Shown: piece by piece, positions 11,038 through 47,243 of the stretch | Position numbering within the stretch: position 1 is the stretch's first letter | How the letters are laid out: each line of letters opens with the position of its first letter | Assembly (NCBI GenBank): GCA_000934665.2 | Contig: JYFJ02000011.1 | Span: forward strand, 62,001-126,000 | Direction: 5' to 3' | From: Catajapyx aquilonaris | Taxonomy: Eukaryota | Length of the DNA stretch: 64,000 nt | Made by a program: the position numbers and the translations under genes | The notes under the pieces: model-generated | Databases searched by the model: none | Told to the model about the DNA's origin: nothing | Seen by the model: only the letters and a program-made list of their open reading frames with translations

Positions 11038-11273
11038 ACATTTTACACCCAGCCAGCATGCCTTCACGCTGTACATTTTATTGCTGTTACCATGTGTAAA
11101 GGTCCCCAAAAGTAAATAAAGCTTATATTATGGAATTATCACTTATATTTACTTGACATCTTTGGTATAAACCATCTGGCACTATTCAAAACTGAGTCGC
11201 CAACGGCCACACTAAAGAAATTTACTCAGATGTTCAGTCACAGTGACTGGACGCTGGTCACAAGGCAAATGGA

Positions 11274-14200
11274 CTAGGTTTTCTTAGCACCGCCTTTCTT
11301 AATGGTAGGCTTCTTGGTCTCTTTTTGGTTCAGCGGGGGAAGCTTCCAGGTGCACCCCCGACAGACCTCTCCGTTGTGGGCAGAGTGTCCTAAAATTTTG
11401 CCAAAATGCTCAGAAATTATTTCACGTCACAGGTAAGTCTTAGGGATCTGCGTAACCATTTTAAGAAATACGGAGAAAAGGTACTCTGGCGCTACACAGC
11501 TATCAGAATCAAGGCGAAAGTTGCGAGGGAAACGCCCTTGCTATGGTGCTAATGGTTGTATTGCACCAGAATGCATTTCTTTTCCTAGATTTCTTTGGCA
11601 TACACTAATACATTGTAGGCTTACTGCATACAAAAATGCCCTAGCAAATGAACAAGCAAGTATTATTTTGGTATATAGATCTACTCACCTCGGCGGGCCT
11701 TTGTCGGTTGTTCGTTCATCTTGCAGCATGCGCATCGAGGTTTGTCGGCGACAGACACGTCCGACATGTTCCCCCTGGCCTGAGGTTGGCGCCTGAGGGT
11801 GACTGTGACCTTCCCGGGCGCCTTCTTTAGCAGCACCGGCTTCTCCTTTTCCTCCTTCTCAGGAGCATCCAAGGCGTCGTTCAAAGGCCCCTTCCAGGGT
11901 TCGGGATTGACGTAACTCGGGGCTGGCACGCTTGTCAGGTCATAAATGCCTGCAATTTGTCATGCAAAATGTTGTCATTAATTTCATCTAGCTATATGTC
12001 TATCAAGGAACAAAATTATCGCAATCTATAGCACCATCATGCAGTATTGTTCTTCCCCAAACTTGGGGGGGGAAAAACAGACAATCAGTTGTGCCAATGA
12101 TAAAGCCCTGACAATGCCTTACGCAACAACCTAAACATATTGCATTGTGCATTCCCAGGTGCAGTGTACCAAAAATGGAGCACCGGTAGAGTAACTTGTG
12201 TACTAACCCAAATAGACTACTCCAGCAAGCAAGCAATCACTGTTTGCTTTTCACAGTACATTATCAGACATCAGCGTTTAGAAGACAGGATCATGCGATA
12301 TGAGCATTTCACATCCATAATTTGTGTGGCACAATGCATTGCAAATGCAGGATATGTCATCGACTCATGTCAAAAAATAGCCCAGAGCATTACGGAGTAG
12401 GACGTATCTGGATACACATTGAGAAAAAGGATTTCGAACATACGCTTACTACGTTTCCATGCACGGGATATCCAAAAATAACCCCGATCGGTCACTCCAC
12501 ATTGCACACTACGACAACTCCGTAATCAGAAACAACATTGATTTACGGACACATGAACGTTATTCAACATATTATGAGTTTCACAAATGTATCAGTGGCA
12601 CAAACCAGAAAAGGCACAAGCCATACCACAAATTCACAAGATTCGCCTGGAGCTGGTCATTTCAGTTTAACCGTCCAAAATTGAATCAGAAAGATTTGCC
12701 AATCTCAAAGGAGCATTGCGTGCATTTGAGTTGACCCGGCCGCGTATTACGACGCTGTCATACACCTATGCGATCGCATCGCACTGTGAATAATGGCTTC
12801 ATGCCCTGCTTCCTCGCAACATACTTCCCCGGCACAGCACCTTCATATGAACCCTGTAAAAACTGTGATTACCCGCAATTCTCCTCCCCCGACCCCTCAC
12901 CTCATGATGACCCCTCATTAACTCCCCAAGTTTTTCATGCACAGTCTCCAGACATGATCGATCGTCTTCAATATACAGGACATCTTTTGCCAACAGAAGT
13001 CGTGATTCCAGAGCCAAGCGGATCGTTAGCCCAGCCGAAAAGCACGGCAACACCGTGGCCGAAAAACTTACTGACCCCCGCCCCCTTCCTGAACCCCACG
13101 CTGAAGGACCTCCTCGCATGTAAACCCACTTTCCATGTCAACTACAACTTTTCAATAGCACTGCTAGTGCATGGCTGGGAGGGGTGTTTGTTGCGATGCG
13201 GCAGTCAAACTCCACCAGTGCAGCAGAGGGACAATCATGTGCGACGACGACGGTCGGACGGGGCATCGGAGGCTGACATGCATGGGATCCAGCAGCACGG
13301 TCACATGACCGCGGTCCAAAAATGTGGACGACTCCGGCCGGACAGGTACCATCAACCTGCATGTTAATGAAGGCATTCAGAGGCCCCAGAGGCTGTGCAT
13401 GCAAATTGACGTGTAAAAGGTCGGGAACACGTAAAGTGTGGAACCATTACGCGATACTAAATCGCATTCTGACGGCGTTAATGCCTCCAGTGGTATGCGA
13501 ATTGTGCAATACTTGCATGCCTGTTGTAACACCAGGGAAATGGGGGGTTCACATGGGAGTCGTTGTCTTTGTCTCTGGGGTAGTTGGGATCCACCAATCA
13601 GTGTGGGTCACGCAACAATTGCGTGCCTGGCACTGATTGGTACCACAACGACACCTCTGTGAGTCAGACAAAGGATCAAATAAGCCATTATTTTACTAGC
13701 TACACATTGTCACTGTTGGATCGCATTGAACGTCGCAGTACTCGTTAAAACAGGGTTTTAAAAATATAATGAACGCAAGAATTGAACGGGTTGAGAGATC
13801 CTTATTGCAATATATTGCGACGGACTAATAAAACTACAATGGCGGATATAAAAAATCGCCGAAGGAGCTGCACCTGCGCTCGAAAAATTGGGTCTTCAAA
13901 CTAATGGCAAGTGTGCGTGTCCGTTCGGCTTGAGGCCTGATTGCAATGACACGTTTCTACTTCCATGACGCAGCATTGACGGTCAGAAACTTTTCGCTTC
14001 AAGACCACTGATTGATCCCTTCAGGGTCACTCAATGCGCAAAACGAAAATTATGGAAAATAATTCCAGGTATTTATTTTGACGAACGTGTTGAACTGGTC
14101 GTTCGAGATGGCCAGGTGGACTGTACCTGGTCATCGCTGGTAACCCCATCGTGATGGGAATATGTCGTGAAGGAAATGAATGAATGAATGAATGAATGTG

Positions 14201-17200
14201 TCCCGTAAATGAAATGATCCATCCTTCCTTTAATTTATTTATCCCTCACTTTTGGTAATTTGGCAATACTGCGCAGGAGAGAACTGTATTTAATCCGTGG
14301 TGCAATATTCCAATATTAGTAATTGTAATTTTGCAGGCACTCCAGGTAATAACATCCCTTACAAGAATGAAAACACCAGCTGAAGGAGACGATCTGGTTC
14401 GACTCTGGCTTGAAGTAGGCAACATGGCCAGGCTGGAGCAAGCCCTTCTCGATGGACACGGTCATTCCCTTCGGAGGAAATCCTCCCGCATACCCAGAAT
14501 CCGAAAGTTCCTCCGCCGAGTCCCGCATTATCAGGTGTGGCACTGCTGCACTTGCTTGAAATCGCACAAATGTGCTAACTGCCTGAAATTGCAGGCTCGA
14601 ATCTACCTGATCCACTGCGCCGCATTCCAAGGAGACCTGAAGAGCGTCAGAGGACTGATGGACCGAAAGGCATGGGGCATCGCCCGAGACCCTTCAGGAA
14701 GGACCCCTTTACACAAGGCAATTATGTCCAACCAAGTGCATGTGGTCCGATACCTCGTGTCTAGGTTCAGAAGCTCAATCGAAGCTAAAGATCACGTAAG
14801 TCCCCCTAATAACACATGTCGCATTTTTCGCATCACATTCCCTATTAAGGTTGCATACGAAGCCGTCCCTAATTACGCCAGTACTCAAATTACAGGGTCT
14901 GTGCTCCATTAAAACGGGTATAAGGGAAGTGCACCCAATCGATCTAGCGTGCCTTTGAGGCCGGCTTTGTTTTCCGGGTCAACGGGGCAAAGGACTGTGG
15001 ACTTTCACGGGGATAATGATCCGTATATATATGCTGGGGAGTTGACCTAGCCTGTTGCGCGCTCATTTATTAATTATTGTTATTTTTGGGCAGCGCGGCA
15101 GGACACCTTTGATGTATGCGGCGGCGTTGGCCGGACACAGCAGCGATACGGACGCCTACGACACTCTTCTGGAATCGGGTGCCAATGTCGCTACCACTGA
15201 CAAGGTGCGTGACTAAAAGCGTCAACATTAAAAAGTCCCCTTTTAATTGCCAATTAGCATAATGCGTCATCTGAGACAAACTTGCTAATTGTCCGAAAGG
15301 AGAAAAATCTCGTCTTTACAAACATCTCGCTCTTTTCTGCTGTCCTTATCATGCATAATATTAGTGCAGAATATTCTTATCTTTCAACAGCTGGGACGAT
15401 CGGTTGATTACTACCGAAACAATGCTCAAGAATTCTGGTTCCACTTGGAAGACGCGATCTCATGGCACCCATGGATTGAACATTGGGCTAATAAAAACTT
15501 CTACGACATGCCAGGTACAGCAATAGCATTCAATAAACCACATTACAGGCGCAAGTGATGGTGACCAACAATGTTTCGGTCAGCATTTGAAGGGTCGGGG
15601 TCGCCCTGAATAATGTTGTAAGTGACATGGGTTCCAATAATCACTTACAACATTTTTCGGGGCGACCCTTCATTTATTGTCATCCATAACTGTTATTACG
15701 TATTTTGATATCTGGTAATATCTAGTAGCCTAACTGACATGAATCACAGCCCGCACCTGACAATTTGTAATCAATATTAGTGTAATATTTCCATGTAATT
15801 GTCTTCTTGTTAGAGTCACCGCCAGTGAGAGGACAAATACGCCAAATGATTCACACGCAAGATTTCGAGTCTATGGAATGGCTTGTTGTAATGGGATTCG
15901 GAGATCGTTTGGTGGGAGAAACTTCTGCAAATGAGGACGTCTTCCGATTTCTAGTGGATGTACCAAATGTACTCGTGAGTATTCATATGAATAAACATAT
16001 CAGAGGTACAAAATATATTCATTAAGTAAATCTGGGCAATGTTCCTAATGGAAAAGTCCATAATTTATATGGTACGTCATAATTCATGTGAAGGCTTATT
16101 TTAGAGCACCAAATTATGTTGCAAGCCATTAATTGCCAACATCTCCCACGAAAGTGTCGATGGTACTCGTCTATAACAGCCCGTCTAAAATTGGCCGATG
16201 TGACAAGGAAGTCAAGGAGCTAAAATAGACCCCCTCCTCGCCATCAGAAGCGTCATGCAATTTGTGGGTGATCTTTAACCTTCTTCGAACACCAAAGTGT
16301 AACAAACGTTTCTCTCTAAAGAACACCATCGCAATGCTTCACCTGGCGGCTAGAATGGGTGATCTGGAAGCCACTGCGAACCTGCTTCTGTCACCTCAAA
16401 TGGCGTTCTCAAGAGATGCGCACGGGGCATGTGCGTTACACAAGGGAGTTCTCTTCAACCACATGCCGGTTGTCCGGCATATATTGAAGCACTTTCCAGA
16501 CACGATACACGCCAAAGATGTGGTAAATATTTTCATCATTTTACGTGCGACATTACTTGCTGATCTCTTCACTTATTCCCTTTAGGTTGGACGAACGCCA
16601 TTACATTACGCAGCGGGAATGGAAGACACCGGACTTATTTATCGGATCCTCACCCAACAGGGAGCAGATGAGGCTATAACGGACAAGGTGAGCTGTTCTC
16701 TCTGAGGCATTACTGATTCCGGAGCAATGAAAACAGGTACAGTCAAATGCTCTGTATGCCGCAAACCTAATGGTGCACAATTGCATGAGTCACGTGATCG
16801 TACGTGTATATTCAGGAAATTATTCCTCCACAGAAAATTCCGTTAAAATTTTAGCAGAGAGCCGAAGCGACCCCTGGCCTCTTATCAATGTTGCTAACCA
16901 AATAAGCTCCACACAAAAGGCCTCCTGTATCATCCCAAGGGAGTCATTATAGCAGGTGCACATGCAAGATGTTTGACTGCTTATAACGCGCAAAACGGGG
17001 ATTAGGCCTAATGACTACAACAGCCGTGACGTTGAACGTCAAAAGCATGACATTGTCTGCCTAAGCTACGCTGTAAAAAAAAAATACGATATCACGAAGT
17101 TGATGTTAGGAGTGGAAACGTTGCCGTAGGTTCATTCCATATTCCCTGAAGACTGACTACTATACGTACAGTATACGCGCATATCAACGTACTCACTTTG

Positions 17201-20200: not shown

Positions 20201-23200
20201 CGTAGAGCGATCGTTTAGGCCTTGTCATCAACTGTACAGTAATGTATCTTAGAACATTAGATTACACGCACGTATTCCGATTCTCGTAGTGTAATTAAGC
20301 CAGCTAGACATTCAAGTCGGCAAATATGTTAATTACTGCTCAGTGCATCCGTAAAACGTGTTCAGTGAATAATAACGAAGACTCATATTTGTTCGCACGT
20401 CCTGTAATCCTCATAATATATTCTTTCGGCACCCATCCTACAGTACTCCTATCGATTCGATACATAAAGCTTGACAGTACCACGTAATCGCTTCCGGACA
20501 GTACCAAATGACATCCCTATACATGTATTGCTATTCCCCCCACACCTCCCAAAAAACAAAGCATTCGAATTAAAGTCTTAATGAGCGCTAATAGGCGCAT
20601 TGCCCAATGTCTGGGCCATCGGATCAATGTCACAGGGCTGATTAACATGCGTGCTTCCCGCGACATGCAAACGTGGGATTGGTTGAGCGCATGATAATAA
20701 GTGATTGGGTGGGTGGGGAGGCTCGGTGGGGTAAAGTTCTCCCTGATTCGGCCCCCACTTGGTACCACCGGGCGTTAAAGGTTCGATGCAACGTTCCGGC
20801 GCGTAATACGTGTAGAGGCCCCAGCCAGTAGTTAACCAAACAAGAGGTAGCCAAGGTCCTCCCCAACGTGCAAAACTGCCCAAGGGATCGATCAGGTGGC
20901 CTCTTTCTCTCATTTGTGCCCCAATCAATCAGTCTATAGTAGCTGCTGCATTAGAGTAGGGGGTGATGGAATGGTGTAGAAGTGTTATTGTAGCAGTGGC
21001 AGAAGCAAGGGGGGAGGGAGGGGGTGGAGAGAAGAAAAGAAAATAGAAAAACCACGGCATGGCATCTCCTGGGACCGTCAGCCAATACTTTCCTTCTCCG
21101 CAGCATGGTCGGACGGGCAAGCACTACCTGTACTCTCCGGAGGACCTGAACGCCAGCCTTCTCCGGGAGAACACCACGGAGATGATGGCCAGCAGGCGAA
21201 GGGAAGTCAAGGCCGCGGTGCCTTTGCAAAACGGACTCTACGTCCACTCCAGTCCACCCAAAGGTACGTACGTCGGATTCTTGCCAACATTCTTGCATTT
21301 ATCGGTGAGTAACCGGTCAAGCCGCTAAATGGTATAACTATAATAGCCTTGCATGTAGGTTTAATAATTAACGATATTGCCCAGGAAATATGTAGAATAT
21401 TCCGTAACACGAAGAAGGCGGAATGAACTGAACTTACTGTAACTGACCGGCATATCTATTCCTTGCATCGAATGCTTAGCTTACACTTAAGTACGCAGAG
21501 CACATGAATTCAACAATGTCTCTACAGCATTGCATTTTAAATGCGACAAGAAACAGGAAGTTTATTCACACAAGATTTTTCCCATATATTCTGCCACATG
21601 ATTACTTGATGCAAGCTCATGTAGTCTATACTGCCTTTATGAAGCACATGAACCGATCCGGCTGGCCGGCAGCACAGCAAAAGTTACGTTTGACAAAAGC
21701 TTTAAAGCTTTAGCTTTTGTGCCAGAACTCCCGGGAGAATCCCACGTAAAAGATGGCCTTTCATGCCGTAGATACAGTAATAATAACAGGATACGATTGT
21801 ATTCGGCAATTTGCTGTTGCTCGTTTTACAAGTTCTCTTGAGGCTCACTTGAACCGCTCGCGATCGCCGTATTTCTTTCAAGAGCATAGCCCGAAAGTGA
21901 CACACCGCATGACAAAAATGCTCAGGCTAAGACCTAATGAGGCATATTCACGAGTCTGCACCAGTAAGGAATGCATTTGATTTCACAAAATCGAGCCAGA
22001 GCTGAAAGCTCGGCTGAAAGCTTGATATCCTCCTAAAAATCACGTGAAATGTACAATTGTCACATTTCCATGAAGAATTACGGCAGAGTTGCGTTCCCTT
22101 TTATCTCTATTCCCTCTCAAGTTATCCGTCCAGTCTATTGCAGATGGCAAAGCAATATAGTTACTGGCATCCATGTACGTGGCAAGTCACAAGCTCTACT
22201 ACTAACTAGTTTTATCTTTCTGGACACCCTAACTTGAATAACTCCATTCTCATAACATGCAACCGGTTTACGCCTCCTGCTAGAAGCTCATCCTGGAAGT
22301 CACGCCGCCATGTGAACAAGAGAGGCAGGCGTGGTTGCTCAGAAGAGTCAGGATAAAAAGCATTTTTAATTAAAATGCTTTTTATCCCGACTCTTCTGGG
22401 CAACCACGCCTGCCAAACGAGGAAGACTATGCCAGATAATATTATGACGATGCTATTAAAATATTATCAGGCATAGTCATCCTCGTTAAATTAAAGAGCA
22501 AACAAAAGCTCGACAGTGGCCCCGTGTAGTTAGCTAAACCATGCTGCAGGTCATTGCACTTGCACCTCGTCTTAGTGGAAGTGCAACCAAAATAACAACC
22601 ACTCCATGCAGACAATCACTGATACGATCAGCGTGCGTATATTACATCCGCCAGGCGAATTACGGTTATGGAATGGGGTAATGAAAATGTAATTATATCA
22701 TACTACTGCCCGATGTGAGCAAGCATGTATCGCAGAATTGATAAAAGATGTTGAGGAGCAGAACAAATTCCAAGAACTCCCCTATACAGGCTGGCCTAAT
22801 TCTGAAAAATTCATAAAATTTCTAATTTCGATCATAAATGAAGTTTCAAGACTTACATACGTACAGTACGTCGGGTAGATATGTAATAGGATTCATTTCT
22901 CATTATTTTGAGAAGTACAAGAAGCGTACAAATGACAAAAATGAAATAATAATGACAATGTGTATAAATATATATTGGTGTGTTCAAATGAAACATAAAG
23001 CGAGGCAATATCTCAGGAGCTATTTGTCTCAGCTGAGTGCTAGTGGTATCTCTGAGTAAGCACTTGCATGGCTAATTTTCATGCAGAGTAGTTACTATAG
23101 TCAGCATGCATGTAGTGGGCAGGAGAGCATTTTATGCAAGTCTCCCAGGGCTATATGGATTCGTCCAAGCAGGCACAATTCACCATCGTCCCTTTTCCTC

Positions 23201-32200: not shown

Positions 32201-35200
32201 TGAACATGAAGACTCCGGACTTGAAAGCGGGATCTCCTCGTCGGGGGGGCAAGAAGAGGTGCAGGATGAAGGTCATGACGAAGGACAGGTCGACGACGAC
32301 GTCGATCGAGACGAAGCGATCGTGGCCATGCAAAATAGAGATCTGGATCGAATGGTGGACATGGTATTGGATGGTCAAGGTGACCGTCTCGTGGGGCTTC
32401 AGTCAAACGATCCTGAAGTGCAAGCCTTCTTAGACAATGTTCCGGCATATATGGTATGTACGGCGCGGCATTACGTTCAGCCCCAGAAATGGATTCTACT
32501 GTATTCATATCCGTGTGTTGTAGGCAAAGATTGATGCCCTGCATATTGCTGCTACTCGAGGGAACCTCCGAGAACTGCAGACACTTCTGGATCGCAAGCA
32601 ATTGGGAAGAGGAAGGGACCACCTTGGGGCTACCCCACTTCACAAGGCAGTGCTCTACGGGCATACAGAAGTGTCGAGATATCTTGCCGGACAATGCAGT
32701 GACACCCTCAATTTACAAGTAAGTGACATTATCGATTCTGTCGGATGTGAGTTCACGCCTATACCACGAAGTCTGCCACAGGGGGTGTGGCCCAGATGGA
32801 TTGTGATATGTTTCACCTATTGCATAACGTGACACGCAACTCATTTGCAAAAACCTCTTTGCTTTGGATGGCTGTACAGGAAGTTACTCTGCGCAATCGT
32901 CGATATACGTGCTGTAATATTAACGCATTCTTTTAGGACCACAAAGGTCGAGGACCCCTTCACTATGCAGCTACTGTTCGTGACGGAGGCCATATCTTCA
33001 AGATTCTGGTCAACGCGGGTTGTGATCCCAACTTGAAAGACGAGGTAAGCTTTGATGGTTAATTATTTTGTTAAAATTAACACAAGGTATATAGCTTGCC
33101 AATAAAACACGTAAATTTTGTTTCGCTTATTAGAAAGGGAACACCCCAGGGTACTACCTCCGAAACAAAAACGAATTGACGAGAGACGACCTGCTAGAAG
33201 AATTCGAAGGTACCAGAAGGAAACCTAAAGTCGAAAGGTGGCAAAGGCCTCCAACTGAAGAAGACAAAGGTAATGTGACCATAACGCAATTTTTCGTGAC
33301 ATAAAAATACAAACAGAGCACGATGAACAATAAGCAGCACCATGTAGTTATGCGTAGAAAGCTTCTACAGTCAGTGCAGTCAGTTGCAACAATAATAGGC
33401 GCGCCCACCTGCAAACTATTGATACGCACAATAGTGATGATACCGGCACCAATATATTATTAGGAAAATCTGTGTCGGTGCAGTGAAATTAAATAATCTT
33501 AGTAGGCCTATACTATAGCTGTCTGGGGTCAGAATTATTCACACCTACGTATATAAAATTCCAGGCTGTTCTTTCCACTCAAGTTAACCTGCCTTGTCCT
33601 TCTTTTGCGCAAAATTTGTATACAAAAAAGTTTGCATCCGATAATAGTCACGGTAAGACAAATAACTTTGTAGTAGTAATGACAGAAAAAATTGACCGCT
33701 CAACCGGCGGCCATCTTGAATCGAACTGAAAATCTGGCGACCATGACACTCTCGGAAAAGAATTGCGGGAAATTTAGCAAATAAGTTCAAAATGAGGCAT
33801 TGCTGCAACAGCAAGCTCATAGGGAGATTATATTTAACACATATTTAACAAACTGTTGTAGAATTCGGATTCAGCGTGTCAAAATAGGTTCCAAGGTCAA
33901 CTTCCGGTACAGTCCACTTCCGGTTTCCCGGGTACACGCTATCCTTGTATACAGGCGGGTAACCGTATAATTTGGATTCAGAAATTAGTTTATTCTTTAA
34001 ATAACTACGAAAAGAACTACCAAAAGCCCTCAATTCTTCCAAGTACAAGAAACCAGCACCCAAGCAAACACCATTTATTTACGGTGTTTTTATCGGGCGT
34101 GTCATGGCGGCCTCGGCTTCAGATAGATGAGGCTGGCGGCATTAGGGTCAAGCGGTCTATTTTCTCAATGTCATTGGGTAGTAGGCGATGTAAATATTAT
34201 TTTCGGCCTCATTATTTTCCATTACATTGACTGATAAAAATAACATCGTGCCGTATGTCGAGATCTGTACCGGTGAAAGTCTAGTGGACATTAGTTTAAT
34301 TCTCTCTTGGCCTGCTAGTGAGACTGGGCAGCAACCAAAGGGACAAAAGCGAGTGTCCGAAGGATTGGCGCCAATGCAGATCTGATAGCTCTTTCAAAAC
34401 TCACGCAATACATACATCCAGTAGAGTAGTGCATGGCACGTAAAAAAAACCGCCTTCATGCATATAAGCTAACAGTGATGAAAGTTTGACAAACAGTTTT
34501 AGTGGATATAGAGCCCCCACGTAAGCATAGGGATAAAAACATGCCCCTAAACGCCTAAAGTGTCCCCCATAAAGATGCTCATTTCCCTTCCGAACCACCC
34601 TCGGACAATACAGATAATTCCATGTGCACCAAACCACCCGACAACGCCACCTTGCAAGAGCTGGAGGGCTACTTCATAAAGCTCCAGACCAGCGAACACA
34701 GCAACACCTTCTTCCAAAAAGCCCTCAAGAACATCAAGCGTCGCTGGCAAAGCAGCGAAAACCTCCTGTTCCGTCCAAACATGGGCGACATGTCCCTTCT
34801 GAAGAAGCACCTCTCCCGCGACCTGTTCGACCGAATCAAGTACCGTCGCACCGTGTACGGTGGCACTCTCCTGGACGTGATCCGCTCCGGGGTAGACAAC
34901 CCGGACTCCATAATCGGTGTGTACGCCCCGGACGCCAGTGCCTACGACATATTTTCCGAGCTCTTCGACCCGATCATAGAAGAGTACCACAACATTTCGC
35001 CAGCCGACGAGCACCCTGAGCCCAACTACGGTCCAGTGGACAGCCTGGGCGACCTGGATCCGCAGGGCAAGTACGTCCTGTCCACCCGGATCCGGTTCGC
35101 CCGGAACCTGATTGGCTTCGGAATGAACAGCGTCATGACCAAGAAAGACTACGTCACGGTCAAGGCCAATGTCGTCGAGATTCTGGAGCAGCTCGACGGC

Positions 35201-38200
35201 GAGCTGAAAGGCGTGTACATACCCATCGAGGAGCTGGACATCGACACCCGGGAAGCGCTGGTGCAGCACCGACTTCTGTTCAAGGAGGAGGACCGGTTCA
35301 TGAAGGCCGGCAAAGGCACGCGGTTTTGGCCCAAGGGTCGCGGGGTGTACATGAACGAGGACCGGACCTTCCTGGTGTGGATCAACGAAGAAGACCACCT
35401 TCGAATCATATCGAGCGAGACAGGCGGCAACGTCGGTCGGGTGTACGATCGTCTCCTCCGTGGTTATTCCGAACTGGAGGGCGACTTGAACTTTCGACGA
35501 GACCCCAGATTGGGGTACATCACCAGCTGTCCCAGCAACCTGGGTACCGGCATCAGAGCGTCGGTGCTCATACGGCTGCCTTGGCTGGGACAGGAGGCGG
35601 CTTGGCTGCTGGACTATTGCAACCGGTTCGGTCTGGAGGTACGGGGCTCTCACGGGGAGCACAGCGAGCCGCAGGACGACGTGTTCAACATTGCCAACAG
35701 AAGAAGGATGGGGTTAACGGAGTACCAAGCTGTTTGGGAGATGTACAAGGGCGTGGCACGTCTCATAAGGATGGAGGAAAAGAGGCAGAGAGAAGGAGAG
35801 GAAAAATGATGACGAAAACAAGACAGTACAAAACATAATGTGAATCCCCTCCCAATGTACATAACCCAAATTTTAAGAGTCTGACCATCATACATATACT
35901 GCACTTCTGCCTCACAAGAAACACGGCACTAGACGACTTGCTAAGTGTTCTACCAATGCGAACTCACACTCCATGAGCAATCAAAATGCACTCAGCTACA
36001 ATGCACATGAAAGGTTCCGGCAATTTGCCCATAGAGACAGGCATATTTGTGCTAACGGACACCCAAGTTTTCACCGAGTGTTTTCACATTCAGGACAATG
36101 TGCCCCTCATCAGGATAATGACCGAATGTATAGAACAGATAATCAAAAAATGTGTTGCCAATCTTATTTGCAAACTCATGATTCACACATAATTGGTGAT
36201 TTCTGTTGGTCCATAGCATAATTAGCTTTTTTTTGTAATGAGAGTACACATCTCGCACCACTTGAGAGAGAAAAGTTACGAGATGAGCCACAGATGACTG
36301 TGAATATGTTAGTTTGCACATTTTGTATATTTTTTAAAAGACCAAGATTTTATTTTTTCAAAGTATAGCCCTCAGTAGCATGTCATGTAGTAGTCCTATG
36401 TGAGCCTCGGTGAAAACGAGAAGACCGAGAGAAGATTGGCAGCCCGATAAAGTACCATTAACAAGATTGTGGATGGGGACGATGACGGAGCAAAATCTGC
36501 ACAAACAGTATATCAGGTGTAGTTTACTTTTCTTTCTCTCGAGTGAGGCGAGTTTGGGGCACTTTGTTCACAAATTGCTGTCCATAGCCAAAAAGAACAC
36601 TCCCCCGAGTGATCCTCCACCCATACACATCTACACACAAATCCTTGCCATGAATGGGATCCCTTTTGGGCTCGCGTAATTGGCAATCCCTTTACTATAT
36701 CACGCATTAATGTGGATTTTTCACTGTGTCACACTATGCCGCCTTTTGCAACTTGCATAATGTTTCCCAGCAATGCACCTCACTACGTGATGCGTCGTTC
36801 GCTAAAGCACAGCTTCATCGCCTTCCACTGAGCCATGGAAATGCAACATGTGGACCAATACTTCCAATATATATGAAGCAAAAAAAAAAGTTCTTGTGGA
36901 AGGCTTGTAACCGCAATAGTGACATTTTCCCCAAGTGCAAAATATGTGATGACAAATCAGACGTTTATTGTAATTCGACGGGATGCTTGAAAAACATATA
37001 GTATTGTTGCATTTCCATGAATCAGAAATAATTGTTATTACTGTATTATCGTTCTTGCTATTTACTCTTGAAGCAATGTTTTTTTAGTATGTCAAAGTGA
37101 ATTTCATGGAACCTGTGTCATAGCAGGTGTTCTAGTACCACTATACTGTTGTCGTTAAAAACCATTGAGTCTTTTCTAGAATAGTCTTCCTGCAGCGACA
37201 TTGATCGTTATTGAGTAGTAGGCGTGTCGGACCGGCCATGTAACTTCAGCATGTCCAGTGCGTGCCTTTTACAAGGGCAATGTTGATAACCAAGTTCAAT
37301 GTCCCAGCAAGAACAAAAACAAATTACTTAACTACTGTTTGTGACAATGGATGACAATGGATAAGCAAAGAATTCCTGGAATAGGCTACAGAATTAGAGC
37401 AAAATCATTCATAGCTAATAAAGTGGATCGCTTCTTTTGTGCTGCACAATGTACGGCACCTGAATAGCTAACAAAAAAGGAAGTATCTGATTGCGAGTAA
37501 TCCGGCATTGCCTATTAATCACATTTTTATACCCTATCCTTCGTAAGTGATGGGGAAAGTGATAATAGTAATATATATAATAATATATATATATATATGA
37601 TAATATTATATGATAATATTATCTTGGCAAGTTATATTCCCTGTCAGGTTTAATTCTGGACATTTAGTATCTTCTCTGGCAAATACGACAACGTTTCACA
37701 GCTGACAGGATCAGACACTTCTCATATGATTCAGGTTATTCAGGCAATATCAGGTAAAATTGTGCTGCTCATAAAATTATAATTTTATTCCGCATACTAA
37801 TGTTGCACTGTGTGGATTTCACTATCGTGTTACTGTGTTCAGTACACTGGTATGAATGTTATTGAAGGACTTGGAAATTAACTGAATTATTTTGCATGTT
37901 CATAAAGTATACCTATAACACCGTGTGCATTGTTATGGCCTTCCGGGCATCTCTCTTAGCTACTGATTTTTCTAATTCCACAGGCAAATTATATTTTTTC
38001 ACGTGTAACGCTCGTCCACTTATTGTACAACCGAACACATTATTTTTGTGTAATGTCTTTAATCATACCTCGCCTCCATGCAGATAGGTCAAATGTGCCA
38101 TGTGTTTAAGCATAGTAGTTAGTAGCTTAACAATTTCTTTGCTTTTTCTTTTCAGGGAAGCTGATCACCACTAACGAATTCCCGATGCTTTGGAACGAGG

Positions 38201-41200
38201 AGGGCCAATATCTGTCTTCAGGTAGAGTATATAGTTAGCAAATATACCGGTACAAAATGTAGTGCACGACTGCCACACGGAATGAAACATATCCGCGTGC
38301 TTCCGCGGGTATCTGTTATAGCCCATTACGTTGCATAATAATAATTGACATAATATTTCTCTGCTTATTACCATCATTTCTTGCAGTTCTGGGTGACGCC
38401 CTGATAAAAGGCCTAACAGAGGTGTCCCACACGCGTCCCAGTGATCCAATCGCATACCTGGCGAATTTCCTGCACAGTTATGCCAAGCAGAAGTCTGTGA
38501 CAGCCGTCGAAATCCCGGTAAGCATCATTCTAGCACGTCAAATAATAGCCTCGTTCCCGCAATACATGCAGTATGATAACAAAACCCGTGCTTAGGCGCC
38601 CATACCGGAGATGCAGTCGGAGGAAGACTTCTTCGAGGAAGGTCCCACGAGCACGGAGGTGGAAGACGCCCCGGATCCAGAGGTGCAAGAAGCTGCTCCC
38701 ACCGAGGCCGAATTGAACAACGAAGTGGAGGCCATGGCCATGGAAGAGGCTGAGATAGGACCCCAAGAAGCAGAGGCTGAAGACGCCCAACCTTCGTCTC
38801 AGGATGACGACGTCGTAGTTCCAGAACCTCAGGAGCAAGAATCCGTCATGGAAGACAGGGTACGTTCGGTTTATTCTAACCACCAGTGTGACTCAAGTGC
38901 AAAGGCAACGACAACCCAGGTTCATTCCTCTCAAACTGTTCCGTATTGAAATCCGGCAGGACGAACATGGACAGAGCGTGCTACACTTCACGTCGGCCCG
39001 TCCACATGCGGCCAACTCTATCTACCAGATCCTCAACGAAGCAGAGCCCACTCTTGCATACAGAGACGAGAGGTACAGGACTCCAAGAGACGTCGCTCTG
39101 GAAGCAGGACGTCCGGAAAATGCAGCCGCCATCGACAGCTGGATCCTATCACTGGCTGCTCAAGGTAATGGAACTAGTCCCACCCTATCATTTAACGACC
39201 TTTGAAACAAAACAATTAATTTACGCAAATACCGTAGGTAAATGCGTGGACGTACAATATCTGCAGTATATAAATGCATGTTTCACAGGGAGGACAGAAC
39301 GTCTTCAGGAACTGGTGCTTCAGGGTTACGACCACATTATTGACCTGGAGGATAATGCAGGGCATCACATTGTAGAAATAACAGAGCAACACTCCCAGGA
39401 TAAAGCGGCTCGATTTCTTCGCAGCATCTCGGGTTTTGAGGTCAGTACTTTCAAAAAAGGGTAGGCTACAATATTTGACCAAGGACTAACCGTAACATGG
39501 AACAATAATGTGACTTTCAGGAGAAGAGAGACTGGTTGCACAAGGCCGTGCGATTGGGAAGCCTGGACCATGTGAAAGATGCCTTGGACAACAAGGATGA
39601 CCGGATGGAAAGTCTATGCCGTGCATTGGCAGCAGCTAAAAACCACTGGGGCCGACATGCCCTCCACATCGCGGTGCTGTGCGAGGAAGTTGCCATTGCG
39701 GAGTTTTTGGCCAATCGCTTCTCGGAGACCCTGCGCATAGGCGACAACGTAAGGCATTTCTCTTTTGACGAGCACAACTCTCCATCGGTTTCACCAGGAC
39801 ATGTTCTTAATACTGTAGTCTCATAGTCATAATTATTCGTATGTCAGACGTAACTATTAGTTGGTGGTGCACTCCAACAGCCATACAGAAACACTACTGA
39901 ACAAATGAATGAAAATAATACCAGTAATATAAAATTTTTTGTAGTGTTGGAGTTAGTTGTGGTAGAGAGAGGGGGGGAGGGGGGGAGGGGGAGGGAGATT
40001 TGGTCATGCGTCGCATCATAAAATTGGCATTTATTTTCTTCCAGCTGGAGAGAACTGCTCTTCACTATGCAATGGGAGTAGACAAAGTCGAAAGTCTGGC
40101 CAAAATCCTCATAAAAGCAGGTTCAAGAAGAGTAATCAAGGATCTGGTAAGTTTTCACAAATATTACATAGCTAGGAAACAATATGTCTGTAATGCAACA
40201 TCTCTCTAATCTCCATATAAACTTCCAGAAAGGGAGGCAACCAAGCTACTACTTCATGAACAAGGAAGACATAATTCGCCTGCAGAGGGAAGAAGACTCC
40301 CTCAAATCATAAGAGCTAAAATGGCATTGTATCTGCACAGGGGTGTTTTTGCATATGCTGTAGGAAAATATCATTTCTTTTGTAAAGCATTATTGTAGGT
40401 AACATGACAATTCTGGTTCTTCTTGTAGCAGACAAGACTGGGAAATGCAGGCTGTAGTATTGTGAAACTTGTTTTTTTTAGTTCTCATAGGATATTTCTT
40501 TTGTACCGAATGATTTATAAATGTTCAATAGTACATATCCTCACTGAAAATATTTAACACATATTGTAACTGACAGTTTTAAATAACTGCAGTTAGACCT
40601 CTGTGTTACATTCTGGGTGCATAATGCATGCCAGATACGAAGGATGCAATGTCGTATTTGATAACTGTATGTGTATATAATATAGGCTATCTTGCAACAT
40701 TATTTTGTTGTCTTTTATAGAAACTAGTCCTTTATCGGCTCGCAGCCAATGTGATCCTAAATTCATATTTCTAAAATAGCTTTTAAAATCTCGCAGCCTC
40801 CATGGCTAATTAGTCAAATAATCAGAGACATCCAACTGTCCCACTAATGACATTGTCATATAATAATAGTAGTACAGTATCACCAACAACAGAGTACCTG
40901 ACTTCAATTATTGCATTTTTCAAGAATCGAATCTGCCTTTTGACAGCCAGGCTACATTAATTCAATATGTAGTTGGAAAGCACCTCCCATCCTAATAATG
41001 CACGATAGATCAGTTTGGTGCTGATAAACCAAGTAACGACATTTCCATCCAAAATATACAGTATTTTTCATGCAGAATCCTTTATATCCTAGACATCTCT
41101 CATTAATCCCATCAATACATTTAAAATGGAGAAACCTTCTGCAAAAAAACACACAGGATGAGTCAAGTCTTAGGCAATAAATTACTGATCCGACAGTGTG

Positions 41201-44200
41201 CTTAAAAATTAATTGGGCAATTTATTAAACATATTTTATAGATTCTATTTATAATAAACTACCATTTAATGCTCTGCACAGCAACAACCTGGAGGACCGG
41301 ATGTATCCAAAATTAATCAAAACTGCACATTTGTATGTGTCAGCAAAACCAAAAGAAACTAAGGGATAGCATCTCATTTATTCTTCTAAGCAAATTAATG
41401 ACCCTGTTGGCTAACAATCGGACATTAAATGGTGCTTAAATCAGGGATGGAAAAAGAACCGCTTCCTTCCAAGAAGCGGTTCTTTTTCCATCCCTGGCTT
41501 AAATATAATAAGTTACTTCCCGCCACCTATGTTCTTTCTGCTATTAATGAAGGTTATTGCTGGCCTGTAAATGTGTTACATTTCCTAACTATATATTTTT
41601 AAATACAGTAACACCCAGTACTGCAACCAGCTGAACGATAACAATTATTATTGGCTAGCAAACGCTTTGAAAACTTGAGCTCATTCTGTGGGTATCTCTC
41701 TTAGAAAATTATGCCAGTATGAAATTCCTCATCAGGAGTGAAATATTATTCTACATGAATGAAGAAGGGTTTCCTCATCTTTATCTCAGTCATCTCACCA
41801 AAGTGTGTGATGGGGTGACAAGGGAAGGACACTGTTGTTCTGTCTGAAGTACTGTATATGCCCATCAGAAGAAGTTAAGATATCCTGATATTGTGGATAC
41901 GAGACTGTATAAGATGTATCAACTGCAGAGGGGACAGAAATAAATAAATCAAAGGTTGTACTCACCAACGAGTCCTCCATTTCGGTAGGCCAAGGTCATG
42001 CTTGGGGTCTTCCTTACTTTCCCACTGATTGTTTGCCTCCACCTCTTGAATTCCTCCTCGCTTTTCTTCCTCTTGGCCACCTTACTTGCCTCTTTCTCTT
42101 CCTTGTCTCTCTGCTCCTTCTCCTCTTTGGCTAGTGAAAGATACATGAACACAGTGAAACTGACACTTCAGTGACATCGCTCTAGGCAACTAGTTGCATT
42201 TTCAGTACGTATTGTCATTCATGCTCATTCAATTTATTGTGTATCACAGAATTTCTTCCTTACTGTCACCCTCATCTCAGAGGTCCTGATACAAGGACTT
42301 TACATAGAGTTCTGATTTATGTTTCATGTTGACTAGTGCATGCTTGGCAAAGAACTGAGAAGTTCGTTTTTAGCATCAATGTACAGGACTCATTGACATA
42401 TTTTCAGCTGCACTGAAAACGTATCATTTTCTGCACTCCTTAGGGTTTTCCGCTTCTTTACTAAATCAATCTGGCAACAGTACAAGCAATTTTAATATAT
42501 TTTGTAATACTTCAAAGCCTACAGCTTTGTATGGGAGTTTGCATTTTTTTACTCAGCCGTTCCTATATGTATGCACTACCAGTATAATGAAACTATGGTG
42601 AAATTATTGCAGTGTGTGGAAACTGGAGATTTGAAGACCAATGCATGTCTACTTTTGCATTGAAATTCCCATGGCCATTTTTGTGCCTGTTAATGGATCA
42701 AAAATGATGCCATGTTACATCTCATGTTTTTTCAACGCTTCGCGCTGTCAACTGAAGTTTAGGTGCAGACTACAGGTGTTTGCTACTACCGAAATATTCA
42801 AATATGCACCTAGAACAATGATACATTCCTGCACTGAGTTACACCAGAGAGATACAAAATTCATACCTTTCTTTTCTGCTAGTTTCTTTTGGCTCCAAAG
42901 CTGGTAGTTGTTCCTCAGCTTTTCATTAAGTAATTCCTTGTTCTCCAGCTTCTTCCACGCCTCATCATCTGCTTTCTTCTTGTCAGCCACTTTCTTCTCC
43001 TTGTCCTCCTTCTTCTTCAGCTCCATCCAGGCCTGGATCTGCTTGGATGACCTCTGCTGCATCTCCATCTTCTTTAACATCTCCCTGGCCTTCTCCACAG
43101 CCAACCTTTCCTCCTCCTTTCCCCTCCGCTCCATCTCTGCCCTCAAGGCTGCTTCCTTTGCTATGAACCACTGCCCCCATGGCGTTACAGCCTTACCCTC
43201 TGATTGCGGAACTTTACGTCCCACAGGTGCGCTCTCAACACCCTTTACCCGAGCCAGCAGTGATGCAATGGTGGGAGAGCTAGCAGAGCATATGCTGTCC
43301 CTTGTGGCACTGCTTACAGAGGAGAACCCAGCAGCTGATGGCCCTTCCCCATCCATGCTCAGTGACGGGAGGTCCATATTGAGTGTGTCCGAGCTCTGTG
43401 AGTCGTCATCGTCATCATTGTAAAAATCTGATGCATACAGCACCTGCAAAATAAATGCAGTGAAATTAGCCTAATGTCTCTGCAAACCACTATGACCACT
43501 CTGCCACAGTTCCGCCCTCTGCAGATTCATTATCCATTGTTTGTGTTATCTGCAGTTTGAAAGTATTCAAATAACGACATTAAGTTTAGAAAATCCAACA
43601 CTCATTTCTATTACAATACAGTGGGGAAGGCGAAGTGGCGCTGCGGTAACGTATGCACCCAGGGATGGAAGGGTCCTGGGTTTGATACCAAGCTCGGGCA
43701 TTCCCCCCTTTCATCTCGTGCGGGTTCGGGGTCATCTCCGGCTTCATCTAGGGTGGGATTTCCGATAAACGAACCACCTGGGGAGCTCACAAAATGACCT
43801 TAGTGCCAACATTGCACTGCACATTGCACATCCCCTCCCAGTCACCCTGCCCTCGGACCAGTGCTCTTCGTTGTCCTAATTAATGTACATCTTGGCAAAT
43901 AAAGGTCCATGCAGGGTCCGTGTCAAAACCTCAGCTGAGGTACAGCACTACACCCAATTATTATTATTATTATTATTATTATTATTGTTGTTGTTGTTGT
44001 TGTTGTTGTTATTGTTATTATTATTATTATTATTATTATTGTTGTTGTTGTTGTTGTTGTTGTTGTTATTGTTATTATTATTATTGTTATTATTATTATT
44101 ACAGTGCTGTACTGTTATAATTATCTTATTCAGCATTATTTATTTTTGTTGATGTCTTAATTGTATAATTAGTCATTTAAACTTATCATGGGTGTCTATA

Positions 44201-45160
44201 TTTAAAACTGTATATTACCTCATGTTTGATATTCACTTATCTACGCTTAGAACTGATTACCAGTGGAAAACGGAGACTCACTGTATCTTCCACTTTAAGT
44301 GCAATTATACCTGAAAAACACACTTTTTGACTATCATAGAGCAATAAGGACATGATAGGGTTTAGGGCCACTCGCTGCATTGGCAGCCTAGAGAGAGGCC
44401 GCGGCCGCCACCACTCATTTCAGAATCATTCAGGCAATGATTCTATGGCGGTATCAAATTGTACTTGCAACAGTTCCACAAGCAAAGAATTAACATGTTT
44501 CATAGTTGTTACAGACATGAACTTGTGGCTGCAAAAATTAGGCTTTTTAGCATGCAATATATTACTCCCCATCCTGCACGTTACATGTACCGGTATGTCA
44601 TGCAAGAAGAAAGCGGAATAAAAAGAAGACTGAGGAGCAGTGGGGTTATTATTGTGAAACACAAACCTCTGCCTCAGCATTTTTGTTGTACTTTGGAGTG
44701 GACGTCTTGGGCTTCCGGCCTGGAGCTGATCCAGCCTTGGCTGGGCTGCGAGGTGGCTTGTGCTGTTGGGGCATTCCAGTCAAGGCGGACCTCACTTGCT
44801 GAAGTAGCGCAGGGGAGGGACCCCCTGGGCTGGACTGGCAGTTGCGGATCAGCAAGTTGAAATCGTCCACACTAATCTTCCCCCGTTGCTGCTTGTGTTG
44901 CTGCGGTACATGTACTGTGCCTAACCCAGGTATGTTGATCTCCTTGTAGGAGGAGCTGTCGGTGGGCGAGTTCCAACCCTATAGTGAAAGGACGAGCAGA
45001 AAGTGATGTGAGCATCATCAAAATAAGGGAATGAACTATTTTGTGTGGAACGTTTTGCCACCAGTGCCATTCCCCACCTGGCACCCACCTGTTCGTGACC
45101 GGAAGGGACTGCAGCTGTTGAGGATCGCCTGGCTCGAGCGGTGGGCACGTGCTGGGCCAT
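11274..45160 (-). CDS. CCDC34: CCDC34-like coiled-coil protein with a ~30-kb intron
   Basis: Exons (minus strand): 45160-45089 and ~44978-44667 (both tentative, with an unresolved 5' connection), 43443-~42867 (TPWGQWFIAKE, K/E coiled coil, YQLWSQKK), 42130-41966 (FKRWRQ..TLAYRNGGLV-G), 11949-11689 (GIYDLTSVPAPSYVNPEPWK), 11389-11274. The joined sequence AYRNGGLVGIYD..PAPSYVNPEPWK resembles the conserved CCDC34 C-terminal motif as I recall it (GYxNGxLxGxY...PxPxFxNPxPWK). Confidence 0.78.
14367..40312 (+). CDS. Large ankyrin-repeat protein built from ~7 tandem modules plus a Dpy-30-like dimerisation/docking motif
   Basis: About 30 GT-AG exons, for example 14337-14534, 14594-14795, 16587-16687, 21104-21263, 25276-25436, 27098-27368, 30066-30226, 31698-31901, 33134-33269, 38156-38221, 38386-38517, 38960-39163, 40229-40312. 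Recurrent GxTPLHxA motifs. YLSSVLGDALIKGLTEVSHTRPSDPIAYLANFL spans 38156-38517. The start ATG is tentative. Confidence 0.85.
22977..24037. mobile_element. Outer MITE-like element with ~130-bp terminal inverted repeats, enclosing two further inverted-repeat elements
   Basis: ggtgtgttcaaatgaa...agctgagtgctagtggtatctctgagta (22977-23104) is mirrored at ~23908-24037. An inner inverted repeat spans ~23108-23473. Confidence 0.75.
23478..23902. mobile_element. Tc1/mariner-type MITE
   Basis: TA|CAGGGTGTATCTGAACTCAGTGCCCCGACG...CGTCGGGGCACTGAGTTCAGATACACCCTG|TA, with ~90-bp TIRs, a TA target-site duplication and no ORF. Confidence 0.85.
34622..35809 (+). CDS. Intronless arginine kinase-like phosphagen (ATP:guanidino) kinase, 395 aa
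   Basis: SLLKKHL, SGVDNPDS.IGVYAPD, FDPIIEEYH, STRIRFARN, LFKEEDRF, FLVWINEEDHLRIIS, CPSNLGT, VRGSHGEH and RRMGLTEYQAV. Codon usage is strongly C/G-ending. Confidence 0.93.
   Translation: MCTKPPDNATLQELEGYFIKLQTSEHSNTFFQKALKNIKRRWQSSENLLFRPNMGDMSLLKKHLSRDLFDRIKYRRTVYGGTLLDVIRSGVDNPDSIIGVYAPDASAYDIFSELFDPIIEEYHNISPADEHPEPNYGPVDSLGDLDPQGKYVLSTRIRFARNLIGFGMNSVMTKKDYVTVKANVVEILEQLDGELKGVYIPIEELDIDTREALVQHRLLFKEEDRFMKAGKGTRFWPKGRGVYMNEDRTFLVWINEEDHLRIISSETGGNVGRVYDRLLRGYSELEGDLNFRRDPRLGYITSCPSNLGTGIRASVLIRLPWLGQEAAWLLDYCNRFGLEVRGSHGEHSEPQDDVFNIANRRRMGLTEYQAVWEMYKGVARLIRMEEKRQREGEEK
41442..41496. mobile_element. 55-bp hAT-type micro-element
   Basis: CAGGGATGGAAAAAGAACCGCTTC...GAAGCGGTTCTTTTTCCATCCCTG, flanked by a perfect 8-bp direct repeat gcttaaat (41434-41441 and 41497-41504). 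Confidence 0.8.
43957..44101. repeat. Compound (TTA)n/(TTG)n microsatellite
   Basis: Directly visible; it accounts for the poly-L, poly-N and poly-Y/C ORFs. Confidence 0.97.
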
Positions 45161-46005: not shown

Positions 46006-47243
46006 TTACAGGAAGGAAATGACTCCAGCGTCCTTCTTCATATCCTGCAATTACGTCAAGAGAAAATCATTGTTTGCTTCTGGTGACACTTTTTTTCATG
46101 TCTATATAGGTGCTGTGTATATTGAAGGGCTTACCTTATCTTCTTCTTCTTGTACTGTGCCTTTGTTGAATCCACGGCTCTCTCCACCATCCTCTTCACT
46201 CTCCGTTTCTCCTGAGTCTTCACTTCCGCTTTCTCCACTTTCCTCACCTTCCTTATTAACTTCGGTGTGTTCCTCTTCGTGCTTAGTCTCCTCATGTGTA
46301 GATTCATGCTTGGTCTCTTCGTGTGTAGATTCATGTTTACGATCCTCGTACTTGTGGTCATCATCATCTTCGTCCTCTTCGTGCTTGTGGCCATGCTTGT
46401 GATGGTCGTCATGCTTATGCTTGTGATCTTCTTCATGCTTGTGCTTGTGCTTATGGTCTTCCTCGTGTTTGTGTTCGTGCTTATGTTCGTGTTTATGCAC
46501 ATGTTTGTGTTCATGCTTATGTTCGTGCTTGTGCTCGTGCTTGTGTCCGTGCTTGTGCCCATGTTTGTGGTCGTGTTTGTGTCCATGCTTGTGCCCATGT
46601 TTATGATCATGCTTGTGTCCATGTTTGTGTCCATGTTTGTGCTTATGGTCTTCATCATGCTTGTGGTCATGATCGTGGTCGTCGTGATGTTTGTGGTGAC
46701 CAAGATGCTTGTGATCATGATCATCGTCGTCTACATGCTTGTGCTTACTGTGCTTAGGGCGATGAAGCCAAGGAAAGAAACGCTCCTTTTGTTGTGAATC
46801 ATCAGCAGGTGCAGAACTATCGTCGCTGTCACCTTCAACACCGAAACCGACTCCATCTTCAATATGAGTCGCTCTTCCGTTGACAAGCACGATGCAGGCA
46901 GCTATTGCCATGACCACCAGTAACTATACAAGACACAATATGCACCATGAGTACAAGGCATGAACATAATTATGAAGACGGTGGGTAGCTGCCCGAGCTT
47001 CCAGTTAAAAAGGATGAGTTAAAAAATAGCCTCCCCCCCCCCAGCAGCAACCAGTTTAAAACTAATTAACTCTGAAGCAACAATCAGGACCACGCTTATG
47101 TGCTGATTGCTGCTTGAGTGTACAATTCATCGACTATTCAGGCATCAGCCTCCTTTTGAACTCTGAACTTGAGTATTGAATCACTTTGCATGTACAGACA
47201 GAGCCTTATAAATTTTCTAATCACTCACCGTCTTGATGGCCAT
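46006..47243 (-). CDS. Secreted histidine-rich protein (~280 aa) with HKHG/HKHE/HKHD repeats and an acidic C-terminal tract
   Basis: Phase-0 exons 47243-47229 (MAIKT), 46923-46135 and 46044-46006 (DMKKDAGVISFL*). Hydrophobic signal LLVVMAIAACIVLVNG. On the minus strand there is a TATATAA box at ~47310 and AATAAA at ~45811. Confidence 0.85.

Follow-up and report, generated by a model that had tools for sequence, protein, structure and literature searches.

We analysed a stretch of 64,000 nucleotides (nt) from Catajapyx aquilonaris (assembly GCA_000934665.2, contig JYFJ02000011.1, positions 62,001 to 126,000 of the forward strand), referred to here as the window, with a G+C content of about 44%. 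All positions are those of the window. Its minus strand carries the exons of a gene with similarity to CCDC34 (Pfam family PF13904). Between the fourth and the fifth of these exons the plus strand carries a gene made up of ankyrin modules, the end of which can be read either into an arginine kinase domain or into a Dpy-30 motif. A preliminary description had proposed a three-level nest, in which a CCDC34 intron contains an ankyrin/Dpy-30 gene and an intron of that gene in turn contains an arginine kinase gene. Pfam collinearity, a unique family match, the coding score and the rank of the terminal exon support the two outer levels of this proposal, but our results suggest that the kinase is not a third gene.

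The CCDC34-like gene has five coding exons in our model. Exon 1 (45160-45089) presumably starts with the ATG at 45160 and ends at a phase 0 donor, GTGGGT. Exon 2 (44978-44667) opens with GGTTGG after ctatag and closes with GCAGAG before gtttgt. Exon 3 (43443-42867) ends in phase 1 and matches positions 3-104 of the PF13904 profile (E 7.2e-7, 29.5 bits), and exon 4 (42130-41966), which is in phase 1 at both ends, matches positions 105-148 (E 3.1e-5, 24.2 bits). On the minus strand exon 4 ends ...GGACTCGTTG, the last bases being ...TCGTTG at 41966, and is followed by the donor GTGAGT (score 4.45) with one base left over, that is, in phase 1. Exon 5, the last coding exon (11949-11681), follows ...aaattgcag and begins with GCATTTATGAC at 11949. 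Together with the carried base it reads G-IYDLTSVPAPSYVNPEPWK, the codon split across the 41966/11949 junction being GGC, and it stays open for 88 full codons to the TAG at 11683-11681. Joined in this order (45160-45089, 44978-44667, 43443-42867, 42130-41966, 11949-11681), the five exons give an open frame of 464 amino acids (aa) with GT-AG at all borders. The introns measure 110, 1223, 736 and 30,016 nt. The phase 1 exon with its GTGAG donor at 41966, the phase 1 exon following cag at 11949 and the intervening 30,016 base pairs (11950-41965) had all been pointed out in the preliminary description, and direct reading agrees with it on each. This predicted last intron encloses the whole of the plus-strand ankyrin gene, since the inner coding sequence, 14367-40312, falls wholly inside 11950-41965 on the opposite strand. 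At 43948-44139, inside intron 2, (AAT)n/(AAC)n repeats form a microsatellite about 190 nt long.

The inner gene was modelled with a simple splice-and-codon gene finder, followed by hand correction by splice sites and orthologue spacing. The plus strand carries the Ank, Dpy-30 and kinase domains alike, with Pfam Ank found in the open reading frames (ORFs) 14259-14909, 15046-15213, 16229-16582, 25744-25971, 31668-32531, 32524-32829 and 39509-39823. In the resulting model there are 22 shared coding exons between 14367 and 33269, after which comes either the kinase exon or a series of eight exons leading to a stop at 40312. Exons 1-8 encode modules 1 and 2 and a tail (14367-14534, 14595-14795, 15094-15204, 15391-15514, 15814-15974, 16322-16522, 16586-16687 and 21104-21263); they were placed by Pfam Ank and by tblastn with insect proteins, with a presumed start at 14367. 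Exons 9-22 for modules 3-6 (25276-25436, 25744-25944, 27098-27368, 30066-30226, 30429-30563, 30790-30972, 31179-31364, 31433-31612, 31698-31901, 31968-32078, 32154-32453, 32524-32718, 32937-33044 and 33134-33269) were placed by Pfam Ank and by collinear tblastn with the insect homologues P0008, P0005, P0006 and P0015. Exon 22 ends in phase 1 and is the branch point of the gene.

Beyond this branch point, branch A is a putative alternative last exon encoding an arginine kinase (34614-35809; PF00217 and PF02807), with a second in-phase acceptor at 34575. Branch B begins with two Dpy-30 exons, 38156-38221 and 38387-38517, which align with the insect Dpy-30 isoforms. The Dpy-30 motif (PF05186) is found in the plus-strand ORF 38263-38592 (E 2.2e-10, 40.5 bits against a cut-off of 22), with profile positions 10-40 of 42 in exon 38387-38517 and the first positions encoded in exon 38156-38221. 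An acidic linker and the last ankyrin module follow in exons 38596-38859, 38960-39164, 39289-39440, 39521-39748, 40045-40146 and 40229-40312, the last including the stop, for which tblastn with P0005 and P0015 gives 45-77% identity per exon. The kinase form, of 23 exons, encodes 1651 or 1664 aa and the Dpy-30 form, of 30 exons, 1663 aa, both being open and with GT-AG throughout, in agreement with the antisense gene of about 30 exons described previously. Of the 29 introns in the Dpy-30 form 12 are no longer than 100 nt, so that the 50-90 base pairs earlier given as the usual intron length of the region hold for part of them; however, the median is 186 nt, five are long (4416, 4012, 1153, 2697 and 4886 nt), and the other introns of the CCDC34-like gene also exceed that range. 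Small exons proposed by the gene finder at 12587-14534 and 21726-24946, one of which produced a split-codon stop, were judged spurious and replaced with the aid of splice sites and orthologue spacing, and a path that skipped exon 31433-31612 was corrected in the same way.

The inner gene is composed of seven repeated modules, in each of which a header of about 45 aa precedes the ankyrin repeats and a short tail closes the unit. The header, for which Pfam gives no family match at E ≤ 0.01, follows the pattern I-x-x-W-...-L-E-x-L-V-L-E-G-x-G-D-x-L ... F-L-x-x-V-P-x-Y-M. Three header exons (15814-15974, 25276-25436 and 30066-30226) are all exactly 161 nt long and have the same phases, which suggests internal duplication.

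The intron 33270-38155 contains an uninterrupted plus-strand ORF at 34559-35806 (stop to stop), with its first ATG at 34622 and its stop codon at 35807-35809. It matches both phosphagen-kinase domains, PF00217 (E 1.6e-64, 217.5 bits, cut-off 22.4) and PF02807 (E 8e-25, 87.5 bits, cut-off 25.7), and an intronless kinase is therefore present in this intron as had been claimed. Its status was examined by comparison with homologues. A search among longer proteins with the ankyrin ORF 31668-32531 as the query returned 32 proteins, of which four (P0002, P0006, P0008 and P0015) combine Ank with both kinase domains and seven (P0003, P0004, P0005, P0010, P0015, P0020 and P0021) combine Ank with Dpy-30. 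By name, P0002, P0006 and P0005 are isoforms X5, X2 and X4 of a single locus of the wasp Leptopilina heterotoma. These isoforms have the ankyrin modules in common up to ...ADEMLNDK and then continue either with a kinase-like domain or with Dpy-30 and a last ankyrin module; locust proteins branch likewise after ...ADNLVDK. The window branches at the homologous spot, where the exon ending at 33269 stops at ...EEDK with one base over. The exon at 38156 needs exactly one base and is thus in phase with 33269. The same holds for 34575 and 34614, two of the three AG sites found in 34541-34650, ahead of the kinase ATG. The naive gene finder, run before the homologues were seen, also spliced 33269 to 34614, and it began a second gene at 38611.

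Alignments with the insect proteins extend across both junctions. The kinase-form model aligns with P0006 in one high-scoring segment pair (HSP; query 572-1173, E 1e-82) that spans the junction at residue 783, and it also aligns over the junction in one HSP with P0008. The Dpy-30-form model aligns with P0005 in one HSP (query 583-1191, E 1.6e-135) that spans the 33269/38156 junction, likewise at residue 783. By tblastn the insect proteins are collinear with the window exon by exon, with 77% identity to P0015 in the last exon. The first methionine of the insect kinase branches is at branch residue 67 or 113. Since it comes so late, the insect kinase domain could not be translated on its own, which argues that the insect fusion is real and not a product of chained annotation. 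The position of the kinase ORF at the homologous branch point, with both branches in phase, makes an alternative last exon of the ankyrin gene its most likely identity. We consider it probable, with fairly good confidence, that the kinase is such an exon and not a third gene, although some independent transcription of the ORF may occur. A different arrangement is seen in P0015, a Schistocerca americana model in which the kinase-like domain and the Dpy-30 tail stand in series while its relatives have one or the other. P0015 may represent a genuine cassette isoform, or else an artefact of gene prediction. We do not propose the kinase as a cassette exon here, as the in-phase donors near the end of the ORF are only weak.

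Several observations weigh against the kinase as an exon of the ankyrin gene, and most of them would fit the nest of three genes proposed in the preliminary description, with the kinase as an independent, intronless gene on the same strand as its host and with its own promoter, the insect fusion then being either an annotation artefact or a later capture within insects. The ORF encodes a complete canonical arginine kinase with intact motifs, and it has an ATG of its own at 34622, 8 nt past the acceptor 34614. The kinase acceptors are weak (-0.5 and -1.5, against a median of 2.1 for the gene); a weak acceptor followed by a strong one would, however, also fit an alternative last exon. With free-standing arginine kinases the window kinase reaches 303-377 bits per domain, and with the ankyrin-linked domains of insects 102-130 bits, so that it is much nearer to the former. 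The names of the insect proteins have the form 'uncharacterized protein LOC... isoform X...'; we presume that these proteins are automatic predictions, in which an annotation pipeline might have joined a nested gene to its host. In Drosophila 72.5% of same-strand nested genes have a single exon (PMC3814207). The absence of any AATAAA or ATTAAA within 1.4 kb past the kinase stop tells against either reading. Among the marks of a retrocopy, no poly(A) tract was found next to the kinase stop. Against an independent gene stand the location of the ORF at the branch point of the insect orthologues of the host gene, the required phase at two of three AG sites, the single HSP over the junction and the lack of an early methionine in the insect branches. 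We regard a separate kinase gene as unlikely.

The window kinase and the insect kinase branches differ in the state of their catalytic residues. Aligned to both domains of the arginine kinase 4rf6, the window kinase keeps STRIR, NEEDHLR, CPSNLGTGIR and RGSHGEHSE, and has an insertion of about 30 residues near the N-terminus of the domain. The reactive Cys of CPxNLGT, NEEDHLR and RGxHGEHSE are what we take to be the catalytic motifs of arginine kinases. In the three insect kinase branches that were aligned the reactive Cys is replaced by Arg, NEEDHLR has become NVQDHIR or NVQEHLR, and RGxHGEHSE has been lost. From these residues the kinase looks active in C. aquilonaris and looks like a pseudo-kinase in the three insect branches.

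The assignment of the far exon at 11949 to the CCDC34-like gene depends first on the Pfam profile. The PF13904 profile, of 169 positions, is matched in order and on one strand by exons 3, 4 and 5, which together cover it, and the far exon accounts for the end that exons 3 and 4 leave unmatched (positions 151-169, E 0.1, 12.8 bits). PF13904 is the only Pfam match of the exon 5 ORF and involves the first 19 residues of the exon. To place this match in context, stop-free ORFs of 30 aa or more on the minus strand at 2-41995 were scanned against Pfam (450 ORFs in three sets of 150, at E 0.5 for the set from 27354-41995 and at E 0.2 for the other two; ORFs containing the N at 28486 were left out, single N bases being present at 28486 and 45687). 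Only one of the 450, the exon 5 ORF, matches PF13904. No second CCDC34 copy lies beside exon 5, and none of the 150 ORFs in 27354-41995, nearer to exon 4, matches the family. With a library of 24,736 models, a PF13904 match at E 0.1 is expected by chance about 4e-6 times per ORF, and the exon 5 ORF also has the expected strand, lies 3' of the other exons, falls at the proper end of the profile and is in the proper phase directly after an AG. A codon-usage score trained on other coding pieces of the window, with the exon 5 ORF outside the training set, ranks this ORF 4th among 376 ORFs of at least 60 aa. Scored as the start of a terminal exon, 11949 is 7th among the 2287 phase-1-compatible AG sites downstream of the donor, and the six sites above it are all at 35367-35646, in an ORF antisense to the kinase exon. 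That open frame (34550-35713 on the minus strand, 388 aa) beats real exons in naive scoring, has no Pfam match at E ≤ 0.5 and is most likely a shadow ORF. Exon 5 has no in-frame ATG near its start and hence cannot stand alone. Taken together these features make it probable, with good confidence, that the CCDC34-like gene is spliced from 41966 to 11949 over a last intron of 30,016 base pairs.

There are also points that weigh against this junction. Exon 5 alone is a weak match, and the PF13904 gathering score of 35 bits is reached by no single exon; the simple sum over the three exons is 66.5 bits, but this adds exons that were scored separately. The tail of exon 4, TLAYRNGGLV, lies outside the local Pfam match, which ends at profile position 148. 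The preliminary description recognized one conserved CCDC34 C-terminal motif across the junction; as the exon 4 tail is outside the match, our data show it for the far half (positions 151-169) and not for the near half. The acceptor at 11949 is at the 77th percentile of acceptor scores. A search for CCDC34 orthologues with the exon 3 ORF gave 810 candidates, none at E ≤ 0.001 or E ≤ 10, among proteins of 132-420 aa, a range in which an orthologue of 464 aa would be missed. Exon 3 had no matches among protein representatives, a CCDC34-like exon matched only IFT20 in PDB (E 0.81, a chance match), and the exon 5 peptide had no usable match in the ESM Atlas. As no CCDC34 orthologue was retrieved, the C-terminal motif rests solely on the Pfam profile. 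These points leave room for the possibility that the CCDC34-like gene ends near exon 4, through read-through or intronic polyadenylation, and that the exon at 11949 is a relic, an exon of another transcript or a piece displaced by mis-assembly or inversion. The frame does reach a stop six codons past the exon 4 donor, minus-strand AATAAA at 41382 and 41226 and ATTAAA at 41270 could terminate a short CCDC34 isoform, and the remaining introns of the gene, at 110-1223 nt, are far from 30 kb. Against this reading, the far exon matches the missing end of the profile, is in the matching phase, has a coding score among the highest in the window and depends on an upstream exon for its start, and no nearer ORF among the 150 scanned in 27354-41995 matches the family. 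We judge such an ending to be distinctly improbable.

It is very unlikely that the plus-strand region comprises two genes, an ankyrin gene ending in the kinase exon or just past 33269 and a Dpy-30/ankyrin gene starting from the ATG at 38183 in exon 38156-38221, since, although that ATG is in frame ahead of the Dpy-30 motif and the naive gene finder did split the region there (though with its second start at 38611), exon 38156 opens at the strongest acceptor of the region (8.2) and in phase with 33269, and the insect orthologues P0005 and P0010 combine the ankyrin modules with the Dpy-30 tail in a single chain.

With moderate confidence we favour a two-level nest, consisting of a CCDC34-like host and one antisense ankyrin gene with kinase or Dpy-30 ends. 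The host would be a minus-strand gene of five coding exons and 464 aa, and the guest a complete gene on the plus strand whose coding sequence, 14367-40312, lies in the last intron of the host. Past 33269 the guest would have two mutually exclusive 3' ends. In branch A the transcript would be spliced to the 1.2-kb kinase exon, at 34614 or 34575, and stop there, giving an ankyrin-scaffolded arginine kinase. In branch B the kinase exon would be skipped in favour of the strong acceptor at 38156, giving a protein of 1663 aa that ends with the Dpy-30 motif, the acidic linker and the last ankyrin module. The analysis shows the exons, phases and domains and their collinearity with the insect isoforms; which junctions and start codons are used in C. 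aquilonaris, and what the products do, is what we infer. The inner gene product is likely to be a scaffold protein. Its ankyrin modules would form the scaffold, the kinase isoform would bring local regeneration or buffering of ATP from phosphoarginine, and the Dpy-30 isoform would dock to an amphipathic helix such as that of RSP3.

A further possibility, which we put forward tentatively and regard as somewhat doubtful, is that the kinase is a nested gene turned exon. An intronless, catalytically intact copy of an arginine kinase, on the same strand in the intron of an old ankyrin-scaffold gene, would have been taken up as one of two exclusive C-termini, while the kinase end of the insects decayed. 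The kinase would then be tethered by ankyrin modules to supply ATP locally, possibly in cilia or flagella, and encoded antisense in the flagellar gene CCDC34. As the ankyrin gene would lie antisense inside CCDC34, the two genes might influence each other's expression.

A common setting for host and guest can be suggested from work on other systems. DPY-30 domains bind the helix AH-D of RSP3, and in Tetrahymena ATP-homeostasis enzymes dock to radial spokes (PMC12399478), and a review lists CCDC34 among the flagellar assembly and intraflagellar transport genes behind sperm flagellar defects (PMC11506864). Dpy-30 motifs that bind RSP3, spoke-docked ATP enzymes and the flagellar listing of CCDC34 make a shared ciliary or flagellar context of host and guest plausible, purely by inference from analogy. 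Adenylate kinase 7 and the radial-spoke Dpy-30 proteins resemble the window in that one locus supplies both an enzyme acting on nucleotides and a Dpy-30 motif for docking. In the window, however, kinase and Dpy-30 would be alternative ends and not parts of one chain, and a ciliary location is suggested by analogy. In human and mouse CCDC34 itself (PF13904) is associated with the assembly of flagella and with infertility in males; three of the window exons cover profile positions 3-169 in order.

The closest counterparts of the inner gene are the insect loci LOC122510441 of L. heterotoma (X2/X5 versus X4), LOC126474660 of Schistocerca serialis, LOC124606083 of S. americana and LOC126355260 of S. 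gregaria, which are like the window in the order of modules, in the branch after ...DK and in having two alternative ends. Identity by tblastn is 23-77% exon by exon, with the C-terminus 77% identical to P0015 over 26 residues. The window gene differs in having three extra ankyrin modules, of which two lie upstream at 14367-16687 and the third at 31433-32078, and in a kinase end that keeps its catalytic motifs, whereas the insect kinase ends lack the reactive Cys and RGxHGEHSE. P0015 has kinase and Dpy-30 in series, unlike the window with its weak donors. Free-standing arginine kinases (PDB 4rf6, a two-domain enzyme, and 1m15, 6ky3 and 7re6, among others) match the window domain over the full length of both domains. 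The window domain differs from them in that splicing can place it downstream of ankyrin modules totalling about 1250 aa, and in its insertion of about 30 residues.

Nested genes as such are not rare. Nearly 10% of the genes of Drosophila melanogaster are placed in nested structures, 71% of nested genes being on the opposite strand (PMC3814207), and intronic genes are put at about 6% of fly genes (PMC3786989). The rarity attributed to this locus in the preliminary description was thus overstated. As in host and nested gene pairs of D. melanogaster, a whole gene would lie on the opposite strand inside one intron. The typical nested gene is a short young duplicate (PMC5174743), whereas the guest in the window is large (30 exons, a coding span of 26 kb) and, as its insect orthologues show, old. 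Without a third level the locus is a new instance of a known nested arrangement, with a large and old guest gene, and the nest itself is commonplace, an ordinary two-level one. The switch between a kinase and a docking motif at the C-terminus is apparently undescribed, its insect counterparts being annotated as 'uncharacterized protein'. In the open-access literature and bioRxiv we found no paper on an ankyrin-arginine kinase or Dpy-30-arginine kinase protein, none on CCDC34 as a host gene and none with the phrase 'within a gene within'.

The arrangement has consequences for annotation and for the study of enzyme evolution. Automated gene calling would probably truncate the CCDC34-like gene at exon 4, with the loss of its conserved end, and might annotate the kinase exon as a gene of its own; these two mistakes would be carried over into orthology tables and counts of arginine kinase genes. 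With a kinase end that is apparently active here and dead in the three aligned insect branches, the locus offers a testable case of enzyme tethering and pseudo-enzyme evolution, and possibly also of a nested gene captured as an exon.

The neighbourhood of the locus contains other genes. At least four GH18 chitinase-like genes form a tandem array between 363 and 11034 of the plus strand; pieces of PF00704 are found at 363-785, 1442-1645, 3270-3524, 6932-7794 and 9068-10792. A CBM14 chitin-binding domain at 10888-11034 on the same strand is the end of the last of these genes, so that the 3' end of the array is convergent with the last CCDC34-like exon, about 650 nt apart. At 11082, just past the CBM14 ORF, is the only AATAAA that the minus strand has downstream of the CCDC34-like stop. 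On the plus strand at 50962-53091 there is a gene for ribosomal protein L3, with PF00297 pieces across three ORFs. The minus strand at 46105-46923 has an ORF of 273 aa with a hydrophobic start, consisting mostly of His/Lys/Asp/Glu repeats of the HKHGHKHDHKH type; its coding score is high, it belongs to no Pfam family, and its product may be a secreted histidine-rich protein.

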